Shown here in pieces: positions 3,664 to 13,705 of a stretch of 13,705 bases of DNA (the first letter of the stretch is position 1; every line of letters begins with the position of its first letter). A model generated the notes under the pieces. It had not been told where the DNA came from. It saw only the letters and a program-made list of their open reading frames with translations, and searched no databases. Position numbers and translations under genes: made by a program. The stretch lies in IMG/VR virus record IMGVR_UViG_3300033155_000407, one strand, 5' to 3'. The stretch is from a virus. Its lineage: Duplodnaviria; Heunggongvirae; Uroviricota; Caudoviricetes.

Positions 3664-3939
3664 TTAAGATTTTTTGACTATATTTAAATTATAGTATCTA
3701 ATTTTTGGTTCGGTTTTTAATTGACCTATTTCTACCATAGCTTTTATAAACTTTGGAAAATCATAACCAGGAGTACCGAGTTCTGGTATAGCTAAGTCAG
3801 TTATATTACCATTCCATATTTCTAGTAAAGCTTCCCTCATATTCCATATTATCTTGTAAGACCTAAAAACTTTGGGGAACTGTGTATTTCTGGAGTTATG
3901 AATCTTAAAACAATAGGTATCAGCTATGATTGCTTTCAA
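3664..3939 (-). CDS. Hypothetical protein (91 aa)
   Basis: TTG start overlapping the def stop (TTGA); fills the gap up to promoter P2; no recognisable motif. Confidence 0.6.
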   Translation of the reverse strand: MKAIIADTYCFKIHNSRNTQFPKVFRSYKIIWNMREALLEIWNGNITDLAIPELGTPGYDFPKFIKAMVEIGQLKTEPKIRYYNLNIVKKS

Positions 3940-4451
3940 CTCATTCTCCCATTTCTTTTGTACTTGTGCATACTCTTTAAGAATTTACTTTTCGCGTACT
4001 CTGTCATCCTGTTAATCATTAAAATACCATTTAAATGATCTATCTCATGTTGCAAGCAGCAACTAAGTAACGCAGTAGCTTCTTCAATTTTTGTTTCTCC
4101 TGTTACATCTTCATACTCTACCGTAACACTTTTATGTCTGTTAATGACTGCTGTGGCGCCGGGCAGGGATAGACACCCTTCTTGACTCTTCACCATCTTA
4201 TCAGACATTTTTATAACTCGTGGGTTTATAAGAATTAAAGGATTATTACCATCTAATTCTACAACACACATCCTGAAGGGCAATCCTACTTGATTAGCAC
4301 TAAGACCTACGCCACCCCTATCGCGAAGTATCTCTAGCATACTGGAACCTATTTGTGTGAAAGTATCACTCTTTATATCTTTCTTAGGTATATCTAACAA
4401 TTTAGTAAACAACTCTTGGTTAGGGTGTCTCGTTATTGTTTTTACTGTCAT
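3936..4451 (-). CDS. def: Peptide deformylase
   Basis: All three PDF motifs: GVGLSANQVG, EGCLS and QHEIDHLNG. Confidence 0.96.
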   Translation of the reverse strand: MTVKTITRHPNQELFTKLLDIPKKDIKSDTFTQIGSSMLEILRDRGGVGLSANQVGLPFRMCVVELDGNNPLILINPRVIKMSDKMVKSQEGCLSLPGATAVINRHKSVTVEYEDVTGETKIEEATALLSCCLQHEIDHLNGILMINRMTEYAKSKFLKSMHKYKRNGRMS

Positions 4452-4814: not shown

Positions 4815-5178
4815 CACTATTCCTTAGCATTATTTCCTTTTGTATAAATACTTTAGTTTCTCCTAAACTTTTAGGAAATTTATGATTAGGAAATGTTATA
4901 TGTTCTGTAAGCAAATGAATTCTTTTATCATACTTTAATCCAAGTAAGGATTTGAACCACTGCCAATTATCACTGGGGTAGCTTGCTATGACTTCTTCTT
5001 GTTGTAAAACTTGGGCAAAGGGTCTGTGTACTACTTGCATTTGAAACTTAGTCTCCGCTAGTATATAGTCTAGAAATACGTCGTCAAACATGGCTTCAAG
5101 TTCTATAAGTTTTCCCACGGTATAAGTTTGTCTTTCTAACTTTATTTCCTCTATACCCTTTAATTCGTGTTGATCCAT
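4798..5178 (-). CDS. Hypothetical protein (126 aa)
   Basis: ATG with AGGTGA SD; overlaps both neighbours; no function recognised. Confidence 0.65.
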   Translation of the reverse strand: MDQHELKGIEEIKLERQTYTVGKLIELEAMFDDVFLDYILAETKFQMQVVHRPFAQVLQQEEVIASYPSDNWQWFKSLLGLKYDKRIHLLTEHITFPNHKFPKSLGETKVFIQKEIMLRNSDVCDI

Positions 5179-5798
5179 TCTATCACCTGTTCTGTTAAAT
5201 ACTTACTATATACTGGAGGGATTGCTTGGGCTAGTTCGGATTTGGACATCCAATTAATGCCCATGGCATCAGACCATTCAGCAGTAGTTCCTACCCAGTG
5301 TCCTGCAACAGTATAAAAGTCGCCAGAATCCGCTCTACGTTTTTTTGCTTCATGTCCTTCATGCTTACACCCCATCTCTACTACTAGTGGTACATTTGAT
5401 TCAAAAAGTCGATGCCTAAAGACCTTTAAGTCTCCGGGGAACATAGTCCCGCACAACTTAACTGGGTTAAGTAATGGAGCACCGACTACATTTTCCATGA
5501 TGTAAGGCTTGCCAGACTTCTTGAGATAATGTCTTGTAATTTCAACCAAGTCTTGATAGTCAGTTCCCTCATTGCGTCTACAGGCCGATGACCAGCTATA
5601 GGCTTGACAAGGTGGTGAAGCCCATATAAAATCAAAATCATCGAGACCCATATCCATAAAATCAACAGCATCTTCACAAAAATAATCGTAAGGGTAGTTA
5701 AGCCCATCAGCACTATCAACCCCAATAACCTCAAAACCAGCATCTGCAATTCCTTTGCTAGCACCTCCTGCCCCGCAGAACAGATCTAATGCTATCAT
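5160..5798 (-). CDS. DNA (cytosine-5) methyltransferase, short phage type (212 aa)
   Basis: Motif I LDLFCGAGG, catalytic motif IV ASPPCQ, motif VI ENV, motif VIII-like RHRLFE, motif X-like AQAIPP; little room for a target-recognition domain. Confidence 0.9.
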   Translation of the reverse strand: MIALDLFCGAGGASKGIADAGFEVIGVDSADGLNYPYDYFCEDAVDFMDMGLDDFDFIWASPPCQAYSWSSACRRNEGTDYQDLVEITRHYLKKSGKPYIMENVVGAPLLNPVKLCGTMFPGDLKVFRHRLFESNVPLVVEMGCKHEGHEAKKRRADSGDFYTVAGHWVGTTAEWSDAMGINWMSKSELAQAIPPVYSKYLTEQVIEWINTN

Positions 5799-6088
5799 AT
5801 TGTTTCCTTTAGTATTCTATCTAATATCACAGAGTAGAAGTTAGATTTTAATATATCTTCATTCCCATTCTTCTCATGTGCTCTAATATGGTATTTAAGT
5901 ATGTTGCCCCTTAAATACCCTATATACTCTTCTCTAGTTAATACTGTTTCTATTAACTCAGTTACTTCTATTTTCTTACCTTTTACATTAATTTGGTAAT
6001 GTTTAGGGTGGTTGACCATATCTTTTGGCTGACCATTTGATATTATCTGCTCTATCCCATCTATCCAATGTCTGACTTCATCACTCAT
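5795..6088 (-). CDS. DUF3310 family protein (T7 gp1.7-like putative nucleotide kinase)
   Basis: DMVNHPKHY...GYLRGNILKY..RA..KNG.ED..K signature; ATG 6088 preferred over TTG 6094. Confidence 0.85.
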   Translation of the reverse strand: MSDEVRHWIDGIEQIISNGQPKDMVNHPKHYQINVKGKKIEVTELIETVLTREEYIGYLRGNILKYHIRAHEKNGNEDILKSNFYSVILDRILKETI

Positions 6089-6431
6089 ATTCAACCACTT
6101 TTACTATTAAACCCCTATCTGTTGCATAATCAATCATGTGCATAGTACCCTTACTCTTACCATTCCAAAAAGCTAACAGATGGTCCGCGTTTTTTGCCAT
6201 TAATTTATTTCTGCGTATCCCCGCAGATCTACCATACTTATTCCATTCAGCATGAAAACCTTCGAGAGGTAATTCATGCTGTGCGGCGAAGTCGCACGCT
6301 AGACTATCCGCACCTCTGGCCAATCCAGAGATTATAGTTACGGGGGTAGCTCCCCCTATAAACTCCAAGGCTTCCGCTTCTAACAGTTCATAATCGAAGA
6401 AATTGCGCCCACCTGCTATTATTAATCTCAT
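6081..6431 (-). CDS. DUF2493 / SLOG-superfamily protein
   Basis: IIAGGRNF, ISGLARGAD, AEWNKYGRSAGIRRN..M and AFWNGKSKGT..MI. Confidence 0.85.
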   Translation of the reverse strand: MRLIIAGGRNFFDYELLEAEALEFIGGATPVTIISGLARGADSLACDFAAQHELPLEGFHAEWNKYGRSAGIRRNKLMAKNADHLLAFWNGKSKGTMHMIDYATDRGLIVKVVEYE

Positions 6432-6916: not shown

Positions 6917-6945
6917 ATTATATCAAAATATTAAACCTTTTTCAA
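6917..6945 (-). promoter_or_regulatory. Sigma70-type promoter P3 (extended -10) driving the accessory block
   Basis: CAAAATATTATC-TTGAAA(6945-6940)-17 nt-TATAAT(6922-6917); shares TTGATATAATATATA; the -35 overlaps the TGA stop of the GT25 gene. Confidence 0.8.
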
Positions 6946-7589
6946 GATAATATTTTGAAGTCCTCGCTATAATTGTGTTTAGCTTTACACCCTGCAGCTT
7001 TTTGTATTGTTGTAAAACTATCGTCGGCCCTAACTACTCCAGGTGATAATTCTTCCAATTCAGGAAAATCTTTATTATTAAGAAATATATCTACAGGTAA
7101 TATTCCTTTTTCTTTCGCTACTTTAATTAATTTAGTTGCACCCTTAGGTTTGATGATATAAGCGTGAGCTCCGGGTAAATAACCCCCTGCTTTAGAAAAG
7201 GTCTTATGTACTCCAGGTTTCTTCTTAATATTAGAACCATAACTGGGTATCCCAATAGTTATTATACTATCAAATTCAAATTCAGGAATAGTTTTGGTAA
7301 ATACTGCATCATGTTCTAATATTAACATATTTTCTTCTAGTAATGCGCATAAACACCATAATTTATACTGAGATATAAAGTTACCAACTACTGGTTCTAT
7401 TTCAGACCATTGAGTGTCCCACTGTCTAAATTTTAAATTTCGTTCTTTCGCCGCAGCTAAAGAAGTATCTTTAGTTGTAGCCATTACCTTGAGCACTGTT
7501 ATACCATATTTCCGTGCACTAGCTATACACCTATCAGCTACTTCTACTGATTCTGGCATATCCATTAAAGTTACTACAAAAGCTTTCAT
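6942..7589 (-). CDS. Glycosyltransferase, GT25-like
   Basis: N-terminal AFVVTL..., ISQYKLW (SHxxLW-like), ILEHDA (LEDD-like), GAHAYIIKPKGAxKL and PVD. Confidence 0.75.
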   Translation of the reverse strand: MKAFVVTLMDMPESVEVADRCIASARKYGITVLKVMATTKDTSLAAAKERNLKFRQWDTQWSEIEPVVGNFISQYKLWCLCALLEENMLILEHDAVFTKTIPEFEFDSIITIGIPSYGSNIKKKPGVHKTFSKAGGYLPGAHAYIIKPKGATKLIKVAKEKGILPVDIFLNNKDFPELEELSPGVVRADDSFTTIQKAAGCKAKHNYSEDFKILS

Positions 7590-8860
7590 TTTGTTCCCTC
7601 TACATATACAGATTCATACTGTCTTATACCGTCGTTTATATCTATAGCGTTTAAAGCGGAGTGTTCGCTAATGCCATACTTACAGGCTTTAACATCTCTA
7701 AATCCTGCCTTTTCAAATTGAGCTATCAGCTGTGCGGTAGTTGGTACCCATACATGTCCTTGCTCATTCAAAGTTCTGTAGGCTATTTTCTCTAGGTCGC
7801 CAGGTTGTGGTGCTCTTTTCCATACAAACTTACAGTAGTTTTTTATATATGCAGGATAGTTCTTGCCCCTTAATTCTTCGGAGAAAAGCCTATCTGGACA
7901 ACTTACGCGCATAACTCCACCGGGTTTTAGTGTTCGTAACGCTTCCTTCAGCATTATTAAACCCTTTTCTTCTGGTACGTGTTCTATCATATGTTCACTT
8001 AAGGCATACTCAAAAGTATTATCTTCGTAAGGCCACTTAACTGTAGCATCCATAAATGTCATGGGATAGTTAACTCTTTGCCATTTTTCGGTGTTATCAA
8101 CGTTTAACCAACCCTGCTTACATTCCCAGCCACAACCTATATTAATTTTAGTTTCCATTTTCTCTCCGTATGCGTCTTCCAGCAGAACCTTCTTACCACC
8201 CGTATAGTGTATAAAGTTTCCTCCGGGAAAATTCTCTTTTTTATCGAACCGCACTCTAGGAGTAGCGTTCCATTTATAATTTAACTCGGTATAATCTAAG
8301 TGCTGTGTTATCTGACTAGTAATGTATGCTTGATCTAGCTTCATGTGTGCGTCCCTTACTTTATTGTTCCACACTTGCCAGTTTAATAATTTTTTCTTGG
8401 CTTTAGCTCTACCCTCTTTACTCCACAGTATTACCCCACTGTTAAACATCAAGTATGGAGCTTCCACTGTTTTAGGTTTAGCTAGGGGTATATTAAATAA
8501 AGCTATAGCATTTTTATAGTCTTGTTGCCTAAAGGGTTTCATATATCCTGGTGGTTTAACCATACCAGGTAGTTCATGTTCCGGACAGGCTCCTACATCT
8601 ACTATATCCTCTAGAAATATGTTATCTTCAAAGTTTTCAATTACTATATCTATATCAACGTATAGTATCTTATCGTATTCCTCAAACCGAGGATCATACA
8701 CTAAATGTAAGTGTCCGAAGAAAGGGCTGGCATATCTCTGCTCAGTTTCAAATAGATAATCACTATTGTGCATCTTAGCATATTTCTTGAATCTCTTGAT
8801 ACTTACATTTACCCAACTAGGTATTGGACCGTTGTAATACTGATAAATTAGCGTTTTCAT
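7586..8860 (-). CDS. Fusion: GT-A glycosyltransferase (GT8/GT34-like, about aa 1-234) plus class I SAM methyltransferase (Methyltransf_11-like)
   Basis: N-terminal YDKILYVDID (DxD), FNSGV, DQAY, WN and IHY; C-terminal INIGCG...GWLNVD, FEYALSEHMIEHV and LRTLKPGG.MR.SCPD. Confidence 0.8.
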   Translation of the reverse strand: MKTLIYQYYNGPIPSWVNVSIKRFKKYAKMHNSDYLFETEQRYASPFFGHLHLVYDPRFEEYDKILYVDIDIVIENFEDNIFLEDIVDVGACPEHELPGMVKPPGYMKPFRQQDYKNAIALFNIPLAKPKTVEAPYLMFNSGVILWSKEGRAKAKKKLLNWQVWNNKVRDAHMKLDQAYITSQITQHLDYTELNYKWNATPRVRFDKKENFPGGNFIHYTGGKKVLLEDAYGEKMETKINIGCGWECKQGWLNVDNTEKWQRVNYPMTFMDATVKWPYEDNTFEYALSEHMIEHVPEEKGLIMLKEALRTLKPGGVMRVSCPDRLFSEELRGKNYPAYIKNYCKFVWKRAPQPGDLEKIAYRTLNEQGHVWVPTTAQLIAQFEKAGFRDVKACKYGISEHSALNAIDINDGIRQYESVYVEGTK

Positions 8861-9543
8861 ATTTTTTGATATGAAGCCTTACCATCATAAGGCTCAGTAT
8901 GTTTTTCTAATAATTTCCAACCCCTAACTAAGATTTCCGCTTCTAATACTTCATGATCGTAACTAGCTATGTCATCAAATACTATGGTAGCACCTGAACT
9001 CATTCTATCGTCAAACCAGTGAAACTCATTTCTTACAGGAAAGTATTGATGTGGACCATCTATGTGTGCAAATATATATTCGTTCAATATGTGCTTATTT
9101 TCGCTGTATACAGGTACGCCGTCACTGTATCTATCAAAAAACTCAGTATCTTCTAGATTCAGGAAGATGAAGTTGATTTCCCTTTCCATGGCGTATAGGT
9201 ATATTGGACCTATATACTTATCCCTCATTTGATTAGTATAATTTAATTTTCTATCCAGACCCTCTCTTTCGGCATATACAATGTTACCAAAAGGATCTAC
9301 TGCCACGTGAACCTTATAAGGAAAAATGCCTTTAGCTAAAGCATCCATAATGTAACCACTGGTGCCCCCTTTCCTCAATCCTATTTCACAAGTCATACCT
9401 ATCTTACCTGCTGGTATGGCTTCTATAGCTCTTGTTATAATATCATAGTCTGGATCACTGTCGTGGTCTCCAGGTAGACTTCCGTCTAAGTTTACTTTCA
9501 TTGGAATTACTACATCTTTCCAAGCGGACTCTTTTGGTTCCAT
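8857..9543 (-). CDS. Class I SAM-dependent methyltransferase (Methyltransf_24/TylF-like)
   Basis: CEIGLRKGG, VAVDPFG, FAHIDGPH and GATIVFDD motifs. Confidence 0.75.
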   Translation of the reverse strand: MEPKESAWKDVVIPMKVNLDGSLPGDHDSDPDYDIITRAIEAIPAGKIGMTCEIGLRKGGTSGYIMDALAKGIFPYKVHVAVDPFGNIVYAEREGLDRKLNYTNQMRDKYIGPIYLYAMEREINFIFLNLEDTEFFDRYSDGVPVYSENKHILNEYIFAHIDGPHQYFPVRNEFHWFDDRMSSGATIVFDDIASYDHEVLEAEILVRGWKLLEKHTEPYDGKASYQKI

Positions 9544-10316
9544 TATTCTTCCTTTAAAAATTGAGGTAGTATGCAGCGGTTAGCATTAGCCCAACCTGAT
9601 ACACACATATGGTTATTATTATATGGTTGACTCAATACTTGATACCAGCCAAATTCTGCTGGGCATAACTTTTTATCTTTATGCAGTTTAAATACTCTAG
9701 CAGTATCAATAGACTTTGCATTATGAATTATAATCGTATCAAATAAGTATTCTCTAGGGATAACTGTATCCGTTTTATCTATTTCATGTGCTATATTAAA
9801 GGTTTCCCAGTGGGGTTTCATAACCCCAAAACCTATAGCAGTTTTATCTTTATAAGCTTTTTCTGTATATATGCTAAAATCCCCTTTAGCATATGTAAAT
9901 ACATCGAATCTGGCACGTACTATTACATCGTACTCTTTTGGTAACTTATCTACCATAAGGGCATGACATAAAATTTGGTGCGCCTGATACTTAGTACGTT
10001 CGTGCAAGTTAGGTCTTTTTTGATATATTCCTGAAAACTCCCGCATTTTATCACATATCATATCTGCTTTATTCATAGTCAGATAAGGGTGATAGTGAGC
10101 GGTTGGTTCGTCAAATAACCAATAATCTACAACAGGATACTCATTAATTAATATTTTTTCATACTGTTTCCAAGTACCAAAATAGAAATCTGCTGTAGGA
10201 AAACTATGCTTTAAATGTCTTAAATCTCTATGGAAGTCCTGATTATAGTCCTGTCTTTTATTACCATTCATCATCCCAGATCTTGGAACTCCCGACACAC
10301 ATACAGCTATTTTCAT
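9543..10316 (-). CDS. Uncharacterised putative glycosyltransferase-like protein (paralog 1)
   Basis: MKIAVCVSGVPR and YDVIVRARFD motifs, of a type recalled from phage and large-virus glycan loci; exact family not assigned. Confidence 0.55.
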   Translation of the reverse strand: MKIAVCVSGVPRSGMMNGNKRQDYNQDFHRDLRHLKHSFPTADFYFGTWKQYEKILINEYPVVDYWLFDEPTAHYHPYLTMNKADMICDKMREFSGIYQKRPNLHERTKYQAHQILCHALMVDKLPKEYDVIVRARFDVFTYAKGDFSIYTEKAYKDKTAIGFGVMKPHWETFNIAHEIDKTDTVIPREYLFDTIIIHNAKSIDTARVFKLHKDKKLCPAEFGWYQVLSQPYNNNHMCVSGWANANRCILPQFLKEE

Positions 10317-10325
10317 TTCATATCC

Positions 10326-11030
10326 TTATTTTACAACGACTGGACTAATTTTGTGTTCATAGTGTTTCTCGTGTATATCAGTCCACCGACTTAGTTGAAT
10401 CCCCCCACAATACGTCCTTACAGAAGCATTACCGTAGGGTTTAACTAAAACCTGATACCACCCCATCTCTGCTCCAAAAAGCTTTTCTTCTTTATGTAAC
10501 TTGTGTGCATTTCGCATCCTATGTGGTGTATGCATAATCATAAAATCTGTCGTTACTTCATACATAGTAACAAGCATAGGCTTAGATACGTATAATTGTA
10601 GGCTGTCCTCTTTCCATGATTTTAACCCAAAAGTATATGTATATTGAGTTTCATATGCTTCGCGAATAAAGTCTTGCCAATTATGATCACCTAACCATGT
10701 ATCATATCGCATACGAATAATTAAATCATAGTCATCTATGTGATCTACGATATATTGATGAGCCAGTATTTGCTTCGTACTATGTGGCCGTTGTTCGTAC
10801 TTAGCTACCTCCGGATACTCTGGATAGAGTTGTAAGTAATATTCGCACCCCCATGGATCATATTCAACAACAGGCTCCGGAAAAGTAATAACATTATCAA
10901 CAGGTGGTTGTGGTAGTCCTTCCCATGTTGAATAATAAACGGAATCAGCATGATCTGTAATCAGTTTATGGTTTTCCTTCCAGCCAGAAAACTCTCTATA
11001 AATACCTGAATAGCATACGGCTATTCTCAT
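10326..11030 (-). CDS. Uncharacterised putative glycosyltransferase-like protein (paralog 2)
   Basis: MRIAVCYSGIYR, YDLIIRMRYD and KLHKEEKLFGAEMGWYQVLVKPY, clearly homologous to 9543..10316. Confidence 0.55.
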   Translation of the reverse strand: MRIAVCYSGIYREFSGWKENHKLITDHADSVYYSTWEGLPQPPVDNVITFPEPVVEYDPWGCEYYLQLYPEYPEVAKYEQRPHSTKQILAHQYIVDHIDDYDLIIRMRYDTWLGDHNWQDFIREAYETQYTYTFGLKSWKEDSLQLYVSKPMLVTMYEVTTDFMIMHTPHRMRNAHKLHKEEKLFGAEMGWYQVLVKPYGNASVRTYCGGIQLSRWTDIHEKHYEHKISPVVVK

Positions 11031-11794
11031 TATATATCCTTAAATATAGTGGGTATATCAAACCTGTAATCGCCCACGTAGTGGGCGAAGTTGCACTCCC
11101 TATCTTCAAGTTTCGTAGGTAGTCTATTCCACTCTATGGGTAACTCTAGTACATCAAATTCATATTTGTTTAACATAGCATTGAGATATACTTGATCTAA
11201 ACAGTGTGAGCTGTGTCCTACTCCCTTTAATCCTGGAGTTAATGCTGCATTCTTGTGGTGAAACCATTTTTCGTGGTCATCAAATTTCTCTCTAGCTTTT
11301 AGTCTGGCCTCTTTTGACCAGAGTAGTACGCCAGTATTAATCATACGCACGTCGGAACGTGCAGTAGTAGGAGCTATCATAGGTGCCCCAAAATCTTTAT
11401 ACCTCTGCAACATCGGTCCTGTAGCAGAATAATTTATGTTCACTTTTAAATCTGGGTGTCTCCACTCTGGCCACCCTGCTATATCTATCACATCTATATC
11501 GAATATATTATTATCCATTCTTTTGGGCATTACATCCACATCTACATATAACACGTTATCGTATTGATCAAAGAAGGGGTCTAGCCAAGTTCTAGCTTTC
11601 TCAAAGTAATTAGAACTAGAGTTTACAAACCTATCCCTAAAGAAATGATAGTCTACTCCATGTTTTATGGCATAATATTTAAAGTATCTATAACTATACA
11701 CTACCCAGTCTGGTATACCACTTTCAGGATAGTGAGGGTTAGGTTTCCCTACGCCATTAGCATTAAAGAACACTTGGTATATAGCGTTTTTCAT
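11030..11794 (-). CDS. GT-A glycosyltransferase (GT8/GT34-like), paralog of the N-terminal domain of 7586..8860
   Basis: YDNVLYVDVD (DxD), INTGV, LDQVYLN, WN and FAHY. Confidence 0.75.
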   Translation of the reverse strand: MKNAIYQVFFNANGVGKPNPHYPESGIPDWVVYSYRYFKYYAIKHGVDYHFFRDRFVNSSSNYFEKARTWLDPFFDQYDNVLYVDVDVMPKRMDNNIFDIDVIDIAGWPEWRHPDLKVNINYSATGPMLQRYKDFGAPMIAPTTARSDVRMINTGVLLWSKEARLKAREKFDDHEKWFHHKNAALTPGLKGVGHSSHCLDQVYLNAMLNKYEFDVLELPIEWNRLPTKLEDRECNFAHYVGDYRFDIPTIFKDI

Positions 11795-12501
11795 TTCTGT
11801 ATATACGCAGTAGGTGCATTGAAGTTCAATAGTTTTACTTGTAAGTTATTTTCTTCTACGAACTTATCAACACCCAAAGACTCAGACCATTGATGGTAGG
11901 CATATTCGTCAAATACCACAATGCCTCCCTTAGCTACTCTAGGCCATAGCGCACTTAGTGCTTCATATGTCGGTTTTTCTAAATCTAAATCTAGATACAG
12001 CAATGAGATTTTAAAGCCTGGACGTTTGTTAACCATGTCTTGAGCAGTTTTAGATATATCTCCGCATATCAATTCATAATCTGACTCTAAGAAACCTGCA
12101 TCCTTTATCATCATATTTAATATATCATAATAATCGTAGTCTAATTTAAACTTACGGTTTCTAAATAATTCCCCCATTGTTTCTTTATCTATACCCGACA
12201 GACTATCAACTAATTCCTCAGAATCAAAAATATCAAAACCTATAATCTTTTTAAAAGAGTTAGGTGCTAAGGCTCTCTTTAACTTTAACCAGGTAAACAT
12301 TCCCGAACCCTTAAACACTCCGCACTCTACTATGTCTCCGGGTATATCTATAACCTTATTAAATAGTACTGTTCTAGCTATTAGTTTATTAAATACCCTT
12401 GAGTCTTCACTAAAGATAAAACCGTTGAAGTCATCAAATATCTTTTGTCTTGTATTAGATATTTCTCTTTCTGCGTTACAAAATTCTGGCTCTTTATTCA
12501 T
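11791..12501 (-). CDS. TylF/MycF/NovP-family sugar O-methyltransferase-like protein (236 aa)
   Basis: PGDIVECGVFKG, IIGFDIF, ISLLYLDLD and LWPR..KGGIVVFDEY. Start reassigned from 12570 to ATG 12501 (8-nt overlap with the upstream stop). Confidence 0.85.
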   Translation of the reverse strand: MNKEPEFCNAEREISNTRQKIFDDFNGFIFSEDSRVFNKLIARTVLFNKVIDIPGDIVECGVFKGSGMFTWLKLKRALAPNSFKKIIGFDIFDSEELVDSLSGIDKETMGELFRNRKFKLDYDYYDILNMMIKDAGFLESDYELICGDISKTAQDMVNKRPGFKISLLYLDLDLEKPTYEALSALWPRVAKGGIVVFDEYAYHQWSESLGVDKFVEENNLQVKLLNFNAPTAYIQK

Positions 12502-13171
12502 GGTTCCATATATTCCTAGTTGCGGTACTAAAAATGTCGTTAAACCCGAAAAACGTGACGTCTTTCTCATACCAATCTCCTATTATATTTTTTGTTATGC
12601 TATTGTAATATTCCGGATATGGCTTAACAATAGTAGCCGTTACGTTTCTACGTTTTAAGGGTTCACTTAAGTTAAAGTACTTAGTTATATCTTCGTCTAA
12701 GTGTTCTGTTCTCATTATAAAACATTTGAGATCCCCTTGTTCATCTGTAACATGGTCTACCTGAGGATACCAACACCTTATAGCTCTGTGCCAGAAAAAC
12801 TCCTTATCCCCCCAAATGTGTCTCTCTTCTAAAAATGCTTCAAAAGATGATACATCTGCATAGGTAGGAGGAATCTTTTTCTCAATCTCTATCAATTTCT
12901 TAGCAAAACAGTATCTAGATACTACTCTAGCCCAGGGATTACGTACCACTGCAAAGAACTGTCTTGTATTTCTTAAATTTATATTTATATCTCTCCACCT
13001 AGCGTGCTCGTAACCATGGTGGTCTTTATGTTTATTCATGGTAGCCAGTAACCTGCTTGAATATTCAGGACTTATATGGGTATTTTTTCCCGCTTCCATA
13101 ATTTGTCCACGTAGGCCATGACGTACAGTCATGCCCCCAGTCTTGGGGATATGTATAAAAAACTTAGTCAA
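12494..13171 (-). CDS. Sulfotransferase (Sulfotransfer_2 / carbohydrate sulfotransferase-like)
   Basis: 5'-PSB-like FIHIPKTGG and 3'-PB-like FAVVRNPWARVVSRY; TTG start with GGAG SD. Confidence 0.85.
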   Translation of the reverse strand: MTKFFIHIPKTGGMTVRHGLRGQIMEAGKNTHISPEYSSRLLATMNKHKDHHGYEHARWRDININLRNTRQFFAVVRNPWARVVSRYCFAKKLIEIEKKIPPTYADVSSFEAFLEERHIWGDKEFFWHRAIRCWYPQVDHVTDEQGDLKCFIMRTEHLDEDITKYFNLSEPLKRRNVTATIVKPYPEYYNSITKNIIGDWYEKDVTFFGFNDIFSTATRNIWNHE

Positions 13172-13705
13172 TCTTATTCTCCACGAAGTACTGTAGATCT
13201 TCTGGTGTGCCCAACCCCCACATCTTATCTACTGTGAAGGTACGAATTTCTTTACCGTCTTCTATAGCTTCATTGTATACAGGACAAACATAGAACTCAT
13301 TATTAACACGTATATCTCTACCAATCATTTGATTAGCATATCGTACAAAATCTGATCCCTTCTTCCAATAGTAATATCCTACTGTAGCTTGATCAGAAAT
13401 AGGTTTCTTTTCTGCCACTTCTACCACATACCCATTTCTATCTGATCTTGCATAAGACCACTTAGGGTGGGTAGCTTTAAATGTAACTATACCACCATCT
13501 GCCTGTGACTCCTGCATACGGTACATAAATTCTGCTGTAGTCCACTCTACAAATTGGTCTGAGTTTGCAAAGAATAAAGGATTATCGTTATCTATATACT
13601 CACTTGCTAATAGTGCAGTACAAGCAGCCCCTTCCGTAATCCCATCAACCTCTACAATTCTGCAGTCGGGCGCGATTAAGGATAGCGTCATGTCTAAGTT
13701 ATATT
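13164..13705 (-). CDS. Sugar-nucleotidyltransferase-like (NTP_transferase, GT-A fold) protein, 5' end outside the window
   Basis: TEGAACT, ANSDQ, HPKWSY, EVAEKKPIS..AT.G.YY, EFYV.PVYN and GLGTPEDL. The frame stays open past ATG 13691 to the edge (...YNLDM), and the N-terminal GxGxRF motif is absent from the window. Confidence 0.8.
   Translation of the reverse strand, partial: YNLDMTLSLIAPDCRIVEVDGITEGAACTALLASEYIDNDNPLFFANSDQFVEWTTAEFMYRMQESQADGGIVTFKATHPKWSYARSDRNGYVVEVAEKKPISDQATVGYYYWKKGSDFVRYANQMIGRDIRVNNEFYVCPVYNEAIEDGKEIRTFTVDKMWGLGTPEDLQYFVENKID

Follow-up and report, generated by a model that had tools for sequence, protein, structure and literature searches.

A sixteen-gene glycan cassette in a T5-like phage contig, probably a copy of one circulating among aquatic T4-like myoviruses

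What does a T5-like phage make with a row of overlapping genes for building and decorating a sugar chain, where did these genes come from, and what receives their product? The question is raised by a 13,705-nucleotide stretch of viral DNA (the window) from the IMG/VR record IMGVR_UViG_3300033155_000407, in which a glycan locus occupies positions 6942 to 13705. The window corresponds to positions 9775-23479 of a 55,984-base contig with a CheckV completeness of about 50%, and all of its long open reading frames lie on the minus strand. The results presented below indicate that the locus is probably a horizontally acquired copy of a glycan-assembly cassette that circulates among aquatic T4-like myoviruses. 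This judgement applies jointly to the identity, acquisition and enzymology of the cassette; the acceptor of the glycan is weighed separately. Cassettes of this kind are known but uncharacterised. New here are the T5-like carrier and the evidence of transfer across phage families.

Extent and enzymes of the cassette

An initial annotation, made from the letters of the window, had described at least nine coupled genes up to position 13705. All nine open reading frames are present at their coordinates, but the locus does not stop there. Beyond position 13705 the block extends another 5.5 kb upstream (L004:2938-9000), giving a total of 16 co-oriented genes in 12,285 bases (contig 16716-29000, minus strand), of which the downstream 55% falls inside the window. 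The genes are as follows, with the last one first.

6942-7589, minus strand: g16, GT25-type (inverting) glycosyltransferase, final gene of the locus (PF01755 35.3 bits, cut-off 24)
7586-8860, minus strand: g15, fusion of a GT8 domain (residues 1-235, PF01501 24.2 bits) and a class I S-adenosylmethionine (SAM) methyltransferase domain (residues 238-424, PF13489 33.5 bits)
8857-9543, minus strand: g14, SAM methyltransferase of the Methyltransf_24 family (PF13578 31.4 bits, cut-off 26.3; SAM motif EIGLRKGG)
9543-10316, minus strand: g13, GT-A / nucleotide-diphospho-sugar transferase fold, WavE/HtrL-like viral family (Atlas, AlphaFold2 and Foldseek)
10326-11030, minus strand: g12, GT-A-fold protein and paralogue of g13 (28% identity, E 6e-20; phrog_13607)
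11030-11794, minus strand: g11, GT8-type (retaining, GT-A) glycosyltransferase (PF01501 E 0.005, below cut-off)
11791-12570, minus strand: g10, TylF/CalS11-type sugar O-methyltransferase (PF05711 4.6e-12)
12494-13171, minus strand: g09, predicted carbohydrate-type sulfotransferase dependent on 3′-phosphoadenosine-5′-phosphosulfate (PAPS), 225 residues, TTG start (Pfam, PHROGs, motifs and model)
13164-13705, minus strand: g08, 3′ part only of a fusion of HAD (beta-phosphoglucomutase-type) and sugar-1-phosphate nucleotidyltransferase domains (Pfam, PHROGs and PDB matches)
L004:4268-9000, minus strand: seven further coupled genes upstream of g08, namely
g07, mini GDPD-type phosphodiesterase of 150 residues (GDPD-like fold and motifs)
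g06, Methyltransf_24 (Pfam)
g05, GT25 (Pfam, about 35 bits, cut-off 24)
g04, short-chain dehydrogenase/reductase of the NAD-dependent epimerase/dehydratase family (Pfam Epimerase)
g03, class I methyltransferase (Pfam)
g02, without Pfam match, distantly GT8-like by comparison within the locus
g01, without Pfam match, in a viral "putative glycosyltransferase" family near GT8/Nucleotid_trans (Atlas)

The coordinates of the junctions agree with translational coupling. From 13164-13705 down to 6942-7589, the genes overlap by 8, 8, 4 and 1 nt, are then separated by a single 9-nt gap (10317-10325), and overlap again by 1, 4 and 4 nt. The second 8-nt overlap assumes that the TylF gene g10 starts at the ATG of its codon 24, as independent gene calls do; with the shorter starts of these calls (g10 of 236 residues, g08 of 450 residues), two apparent overlaps of 80 nt vanish. 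Promoter and terminator scans of the locus gave counts that did not exceed those of shuffled sequences (38 against 43 expected and 6 against 5.9, respectively) and marked no operon boundaries.

Pfam matches in the locus comprise Sulfotransfer_2, TylF/Methyltransf_24, Methyltransf_24 (three genes), Methyltransf_23/11/25 (two genes), GT25 (two genes), GT8, Epimerase, and HAD_2 with NTP_transferase. The domain calls made for the window genes (NTP_transferase, Sulfotransfer_2, methyltransferases, a weak GT8, the GT8-methyltransferase fusion and GT25) hold. Counted over the whole cassette, there are at most eight domains of GT-A type and five of SAM methyltransferases, besides one sulfotransferase and three sugar-nucleotide proteins, all with intact motifs (DxD, SAM, PAPS, YxxxK, HRG/ExD/HD). 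The GT-A set consists of three GT8-like, two GT25, two WavE-like and one GT8/Nucleotid_trans-like protein. In none of the 16 proteins do 19 consecutive residues reach transmembrane-grade hydrophobicity; the sole high value (1.92) comes from N-terminal residues that precede the likely true start of g08. No multi-pass membrane protein or exporter is encoded in the whole 56-kb contig. The enzymes therefore look soluble, as had been judged by eye.

Three proteins would supply the activated sugar. The g08 gene is cut by the window edge; its full product (L004:2938-4290/4347, 450-469 residues) matches HAD_2 (3e-32), NTP_transferase (2.2e-10) and phrog_3980 (2.7e-75), and among PDB sequences the pyrophosphorylase 4evw (1.2e-20) and beta-phosphoglucomutase (1e-16). 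Its HAD half may be a mutase, a phosphatase or a pyrophosphatase, since related HAD enzymes include inorganic pyrophosphatases. Adjoining and overlapping g08, g07 has a shortened GDPD-like fold that retains the active-site motifs HRG, ENS, ExD and HD. NCBIfam and PDB matches place g04 between 4-keto-reductases, 4-epimerases and 4,6-dehydratases; it carries the GxxGxxG and YxxxK motifs, plus TDK in place of the TDE of dehydratases. Because g04 and the HAD domain of g08 score below every NCBIfam equivalog cut-off, the sugar made by g04, g07 and g08 cannot be named. Most locus proteins receive no NCBIfam assignment.

The predicted sulfotransferase g09, the least usual of the assignments, scores 26.2 bits against PF03567 (Sulfotransfer_2, cut-off 22) and 1.2e-9 against phrog_3347. 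Both PAPS-binding motifs, the 5′-phosphosulfate-binding HIPKxxG (H7, I8, K10, G13) and the 3′-phosphate-binding RNPWxRxxS (R77-S85), are invariant in 20 g09 homologues. A structural model (pLDDT 89.6) gave fold matches that were marginal yet unanimous: 50 of the 50 listed PDB matches are sulfotransferases, with E around 1e-3 and TM-scores of 0.45-0.5. Swiss-Prot fold matches of the model include carbohydrate sulfotransferases, again with marginal E-values, and a PDB sequence search with g09 returned no match. In the pathway proposed below, g09 would transfer sulfate to a sugar. Homologues align from residue 3-4, that is, with the longer TTG start, 8 nt inside g08. Public gene calls put the start at the ATG of codon 14 (212 residues), losing the HIPKTGG PAPS-binding motif. 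The TTG start is thus correct, because the family alignment starts there and the later ATG drops the motif. The g09 family comprises 840 metagenomic clusters at E up to 1e-3, frequently next to g02 homologues.

Among the tailoring and transfer enzymes, g10 has as its nearest solved relative CalS11, a TDP-rhamnose 3′-O-methyltransferase (4.1e-16), and its likely start is at 12501, which gives the 236 residues called in independent assemblies. In g11 a DVD motif at residue 85 forms the DxD that follows a hydrophobic strand. The protein is 32% identical to the GT8 domain of g15 and 56-60% identical to its orthologues in T4-like cassettes, and homologues of g11 and g15 at 44-53% identity carry PF01501. 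Two genes that the initial annotation had listed as glycosyltransferase-like unknowns, g12 and g13, are paralogues, and the AlphaFold2 model of g13 (pLDDT 91.9) has a GT-A fold, with Foldseek matches to GnT-I (6e-6), TarP (8e-6) and SpsA (2e-5); in the Atlas, its structural neighbours are WavE, HtrL, GT8 and GT2. The two halves of g15 are separate genes in T4-like cassettes, and the fusion is nearly unique, with one other (P0009) among 5.8 billion proteins. Finally, g16 is 29.5% identical to its paralogue g05 and 37-48% identical to its orthologues; a PDB sequence search with g16 found no match.

Overall, 16 overlapping genes, soluble enzymes and intact catalytic motifs support the coupled assembly line for a tailored glycan that had been proposed for the window, and as enzymology the mechanism is well backed. 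In such a pathway, g07, g08 and g04 would make or convert a nucleoside diphosphate (NDP)-activated sugar, and up to eight GT-A enzymes would add sugars one at a time, in the cytoplasm or at the inner membrane face, to give a hetero-oligosaccharide. O-methylation of the sugars would fall to the five SAM methyltransferase domains (among them a CalS11/TylF-like one and the one fused to GT8), and g09 would add sulfate from host PAPS.

The carrier and the provenance of the cassette

The genes flanking the cassette are of T5 type according to PHROGs: SbcD, SSB, a helicase, Pol A, primase, DnaB, a D5-like regulator, a split NAD ligase and D2/D3. The replication module follows the T5 order. The DNA polymerase shows 42-43% identity to Demerecviridae polymerases over its full length; for the NAD ligase, the ligases of 113-kb Vibrio phages give 45%. 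Upstream of the locus and on its strand stand about 28 clustered tRNA genes, as in the T5 tRNA region. The T5-like character proposed from the window is therefore supported by gene order, polymerase and tRNA cluster. That the carrier is a distant T5 relative is supported by these sequence features, read from a 56-kb fragment without structural genes or terminal repeats.

With a contig only about 50% complete, and with a 2.9-kb fragment of the locus binned into a Gammaproteobacteria metagenome-assembled genome (MAG), one may ask whether the stretch is cellular DNA, or a chimera of a T5-like phage with a T4-like phage or bacterial glycan locus, as the initial annotation had considered. Such an artefact is hardly credible. 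The junction running from g16 through SLOG and DUF3310 genes to a C5 cytosine methyltransferase gene was assembled identically in four JGI samples, and identical proteins occur on 6-9 contigs, the longest of 77.7 kb. The composition of the locus matches that of the backbone (GC 0.362 against 0.356, tetranucleotide r 0.95), and T5-type genes and tRNAs are found on both sides of it, on one strand.

In agreement with the initial annotation, by which coliphage T5 is not known to have such a locus, the cassette is lacking in the nearest T5-like relatives. Three of these from IMG/VR (87-97 kb, 83-92% complete) have the same replication module in the same order and contain no HAD-nucleotidyltransferase fusion, GT8 or GT25. 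Among 50,697 deposited phage genomes, g09, g13 and g16 had no match, and for g15 there were two, both partial and both to phages that are not T5-like; a megablast search of the same records with the window and with one uncultured carrier (L006) as queries gave no match.

The kinship lies with the glycan loci of marine T4-like myoviruses, which the initial annotation had named as familiar examples. Uncultured contigs (L026, L023, L006-L008 and L027) carry the cassette between flanks that are non-homologous to those of our contig. The typeable carriers, which do not include L023, show T4 signs, namely T4 RNase H, gp32, gp23, the gene 30.3 family, or CheckV-implied genomes of about 170 kb. The nearest syntenic cassette (L026) shares 12 of the 16 genes at 30-71% identity, including g07 at 47% and g08 at 71%. 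A syntenic core is kept (GT8, g13-like, GT8, methyltransferase, Methyltransf_24 and two GT25), with orthologues at 30-68% identity; the order deviates from that of the T4-like cassettes in that g05 and g06 stand upstream of g07. In the cultured cyanomyoviruses S-CAM9 and S-PRM1, g07 (40-42% identity) and g08 (56-57%) are found inside these phages' own glycosyltransferase clusters. The GT8 and GT25 paralogue pairs are 28-32% identical, and both members are already present in T4-like cassettes, so these duplications predate the arrival of the cassette in the T5-like phage. Only the pair g12/g13 has a single counterpart in some carriers.

These data make the initial description of an undescribed glycosylation system an overstatement: the locus is a transferred copy of a cassette abundant in metagenomes. 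In one T4-like carrier (L027:7139-16714, 18367-19707), about 1.7 kb separates the end of the cassette from the gene for the gp23 major capsid protein and the prohead genes. A pair of mini-GDPD and HAD-nucleotidyltransferase genes was also observed in an alphaproteobacterial single-cell genome, AG-414-N23 (L035:6812-9377, plus strand; 36% and 52% identity). There it lies on a 338-kb contig between a TPR-methyltransferase gene and lepA, among housekeeping genes, with a GT9 heptosyltransferase gene about 7 kb away; these surroundings give no clue to the sugar.

The other features noted around the locus are the following.

Window 3936-4451: peptide deformylase
Window 5160-5798, minus strand: compact C5 cytosine DNA methyltransferase of 212 residues, about 1.1 kb downstream of the locus (motifs)
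Window 5795-6094, minus strand: DUF3310 protein
Window 6081-6431, minus strand: YAcAr/SLOG-family protein (DprA-like fold), between the glycan locus and the two preceding genes
L004:9731-19844 and L005:425-7064, minus strand: the tRNA cluster (28 genes by ARAGORN, 26 by Rfam)
L004:10268-11803 and L004:11833-12666, minus strand: NAD-salvage pair upstream of the locus, nicotinamide phosphoribosyltransferase and ribose-phosphate pyrophosphokinase
L004:16330-16719 (contig 36330-36719), minus strand: permuted two-piece tmRNA (Rfam tmRNA_permuted 119 bits, alpha_tmRNA 80 bits)

The locus, the NAD-salvage pair and the deformylase all belong to an accessory stretch of about 21 kb, whose conserved flanking genes lie only about 3.5 kb apart in the T5-like relative L012. 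The compact C5 methyltransferase has motifs I (FCGAGG), IV (PPCQ) and VI (ENV) and no recognisable target-recognition half. The C5-methyltransferase-like reading frames of the T5-like relatives encode 198-202 residues with PPC and ENP motifs and are non-homologous to it; tblastn showed no homology between the two, and its assignment as a backbone gene was rejected.

As regards the host, ARAGORN predicts the tag ANDNIIAFPIVGNDFGIEAELAMAA for the permuted tmRNA, and the match to the alpha-type model together with the ANDN start of the tag hints at an alphaproteobacterial host. The fragment of 2889 bases in the Gammaproteobacteria MAG (L036, QNFK01000405.1; B5_G11 / B5_Guay11) is 99-100% identical to g04-g08. 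Either a phage contig was mis-binned here, or the fragment hints weakly at a host, in conflict with the alpha-type tmRNA. The phage, which is uncultured, is contained in the DNA sequencing runs of two sediment metagenomes, with small shares in two more runs; no RNA sequencing run containing it was found among the runs listed.

Candidate acceptors of the glycan

By analogy with characterised systems, we tentatively favour the phage's own virion proteins as the acceptor, over lipid A-core, other acceptors and DNA. The choice is made because the only proven phage operons that combine an O-methyltransferase with tandem glycosyltransferases modify the capsid and the tail tube, and because the enzyme families are virus-dominated and the enzymes look soluble rather than membrane-peripheral. 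Indeed, the locus families are overwhelmingly viral in Atlas clusters. The isoelectric points of the eight glycosyltransferases are 5.8-6.7 in five and 8.0-8.6 in three, and no basic amphipathic C-terminal segment was seen, in a comparison confined to the phage proteins. The more specific proposal is that phage-encoded soluble enzymes alone make an oligosaccharide, sulfated and carrying several O-methyl groups, with which the phage coats its capsid or tail proteins; this is possible but somewhat more doubtful.

Several points weigh against a virion acceptor. The evidence for it is all indirect and comes from a 56-kb contig without structural genes, and the neighbours of the locus are early and replication genes rather than late ones. 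A host target would explain no less well why the cassette is present in T4-like and T5-like phages, whose virion proteins are unrelated. On the side of the enzymes, sequence matches do not identify the sugar product of g07, g08 and g04; the GT8 scores of g11 (16.9 bits) and g15 (24.2 bits) are below the PF01501 cut-off of 24.3; and the fold of g13 also matches nucleotidyltransferases of the same superfold. Moreover, GT8, GT25 and WavE/HtrL are classic families of lipopolysaccharide (LPS) core synthesis. Enzymes of these types extend lipid A-core at the cytoplasmic face of the inner membrane, and host MsbA exports the product. The absence of a flippase had been read initially as pointing to a cytoplasmic acceptor; this argument fails, since these families extend lipid A-core with no exporter of their own.

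Remodelling of the host envelope is the first rival. Lipid A-core of the lipooligosaccharide (LOS) type, or another glycolipid, would be tailored at the inner membrane face and exported by host MsbA/Lpt; the altered surface might then block superinfection or free progeny from debris, by analogy with receptor masking by T5 Llp. Signature families of the LPS core (GT8, GT25, WavE/HtrL-like) are in the locus, and the lipid A-core route requires no phage exporter. With a common host target, the cassette could move, as it does, between unrelated phage backbones, and a marine alphaproteobacterial genome contains the g07-g08 module too. For the glycosyltransferase clusters of cyanomyoviruses, the literature assumes that the cell surface is modified (PMC12801897). 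Against this rival, the Atlas families are almost wholly viral and are not recent host copies, and five methyltransferases with a sulfotransferase would be unusual for a core oligosaccharide. Peripheral LPS-core enzymes would be expected to end in basic amphipathic C-terminal tails; the glycosyltransferases have none, and most of them are acidic. On balance, we regard an envelope acceptor as rather unlikely, and acceptors of other kinds as more unlikely still.

DNA hypermodification has also to be considered. Phage GT-A enzymes, GT8-like ones included, build mono- to trisaccharides on 5-hydroxymethylcytosine (5hmC), in clusters defined by a 5mYOX/TET or ThyS enzyme (Pyle et al., 10.1101/2023.12.21.572611). 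The glycan would in this case sit on a hydroxymethylated base, as in the clusters of C5 methyltransferase, 5mYOX and glycosyltransferase genes of these authors. An intact compact C5 cytosine methyltransferase gene stands 1.1 kb downstream of the locus, which has replication genes as neighbours. In some phage clusters, the secondary sugars of 5hmC glycans are attached by GT8-like enzymes (10.1101/2023.12.21.572611), and TarP-like folds are among the best matches of g13. However, a six-frame search of the 56-kb contig, about half of the genome, gave no match to Tet_JBP (PF12851) or to ThyA-type enzymes (PF00303) at E up to 1. No Tet_JBP was found in five viral records that carry the cassette, and no C5 methyltransferase in the two of them checked, which are T4-like. 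T5-like relatives without the locus likewise carry small C5-methyltransferase-like genes, and the enzyme load (eight glycosyltransferases, five methyltransferases and a sulfotransferase) far exceeds what the mono- to trisaccharides reported on DNA would need. The initial annotation had left DNA as an alternative acceptor. The lack of any TET/JBP or ThyA-type family in the contig weakens that alternative, which we consider very unlikely.

Significance and comparison with known systems

Few unexplained accessory blocks of aquatic phages are as common as large glycan cassettes, of which the present one is a further instance that does not settle their function by itself. It does indicate that the cassette can pass between phage families whose virions are unrelated; therefore, either the acceptor is host-borne or generic, or a simple, transferable tag is what the initiating enzyme recognises. 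The predicted PAPS sulfotransferase, well supported by motifs and model, would add sulfation to a phage glycan pathway. As its family counts 840 metagenomic clusters and none in deposited phage genomes, cultured models miss a sizeable part of phage biochemistry. If the glycan does coat the virion, it would be the first case of virion glycosylation among T5-like phages and of a sulfated glycan among all bacterial viruses, and the cassette would be a portable "glycan coat" module exchangeable between T4-like and T5-like phages.

The closest likeness is with the T4-like cassettes. They share the core of mini-GDPD and HAD-nucleotidyltransferase genes (g08 at 57-71% identity in L026, S-CAM9 and S-PRM1), and the uncultured carriers share the order GT8, g13-like, GT8, methyltransferase, Methyltransf_24, GT25, GT25, with swappable tailoring genes that include the g09 sulfotransferase family. 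The present cassette differs from them by its T5-like backbone, by the g15 fusion and by having sulfotransferase and TylF genes together. With the clusters of the cultured Synechococcus phages (S-CAM9 gp059-gp071, S-PRM1 gp092-gp103), only g07 and g08 are common at E < 1e-5.

Bacterial LPS core and LOS enzymes (GT8 WaaJ/WaaO/LgtC, GT25 LgtB/Lic2A, WavE and HtrL) belong to the same CAZy/Pfam families and work on the same principle: sugars are transferred one step at a time from NDP-sugars, and neither a lipid-linked repeat unit nor a dedicated flippase is involved. The phage proteins differ in forming virus-dominated subfamilies, in scoring near or below the GT8 cut-off and in showing no evident membrane-association tails.

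Chlorovirus PBCV-1 is similar in having cytoplasmic soluble GT-A enzymes fused to a sugar O-methyltransferase, and it bears a heavily O-methylated glycan on a virion protein. Its A064R, part of the capsid glycan machinery, has two glycosyltransferase domains and a methyltransferase domain. PBCV-1 differs in being a eukaryotic giant virus, and it is not known to have sulfation. GT8-like phage enzymes match A064R structurally (Pyle et al., 10.1101/2023.12.21.572611). The DNA-modifying clusters of the same authors resemble the present locus in their GT-A enzymes, GT8-like ones included, in an epimerase and in a nearby C5 methyltransferase gene among replication genes; they contain 5mYOX or ThyS, neither of which was found in our contig, whereas the tailoring here is far greater.

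Finally, PMC11600133 and PMC12619734, citing Freeman et al. 2023, describe virion glycosylation by operons of mycobacteriophages (Cluster O/Corndog, Che8 and Myrna). As in the present cassette, an O-methyltransferase gene stands together with tandem genes for soluble glycosyltransferases in this siphovirus operon, and an exporter is lacking. No other role of such an operon is known from experiments with tailed phages. As described there, the operon has four genes against 16 here, without sulfotransferase or sugar-nucleotide genes, and its hosts are Actinobacteria. Its acceptor, the C-termini of proteins that form capsid and tail tube, has been demonstrated, whereas the cassette described here is known from its genes alone.

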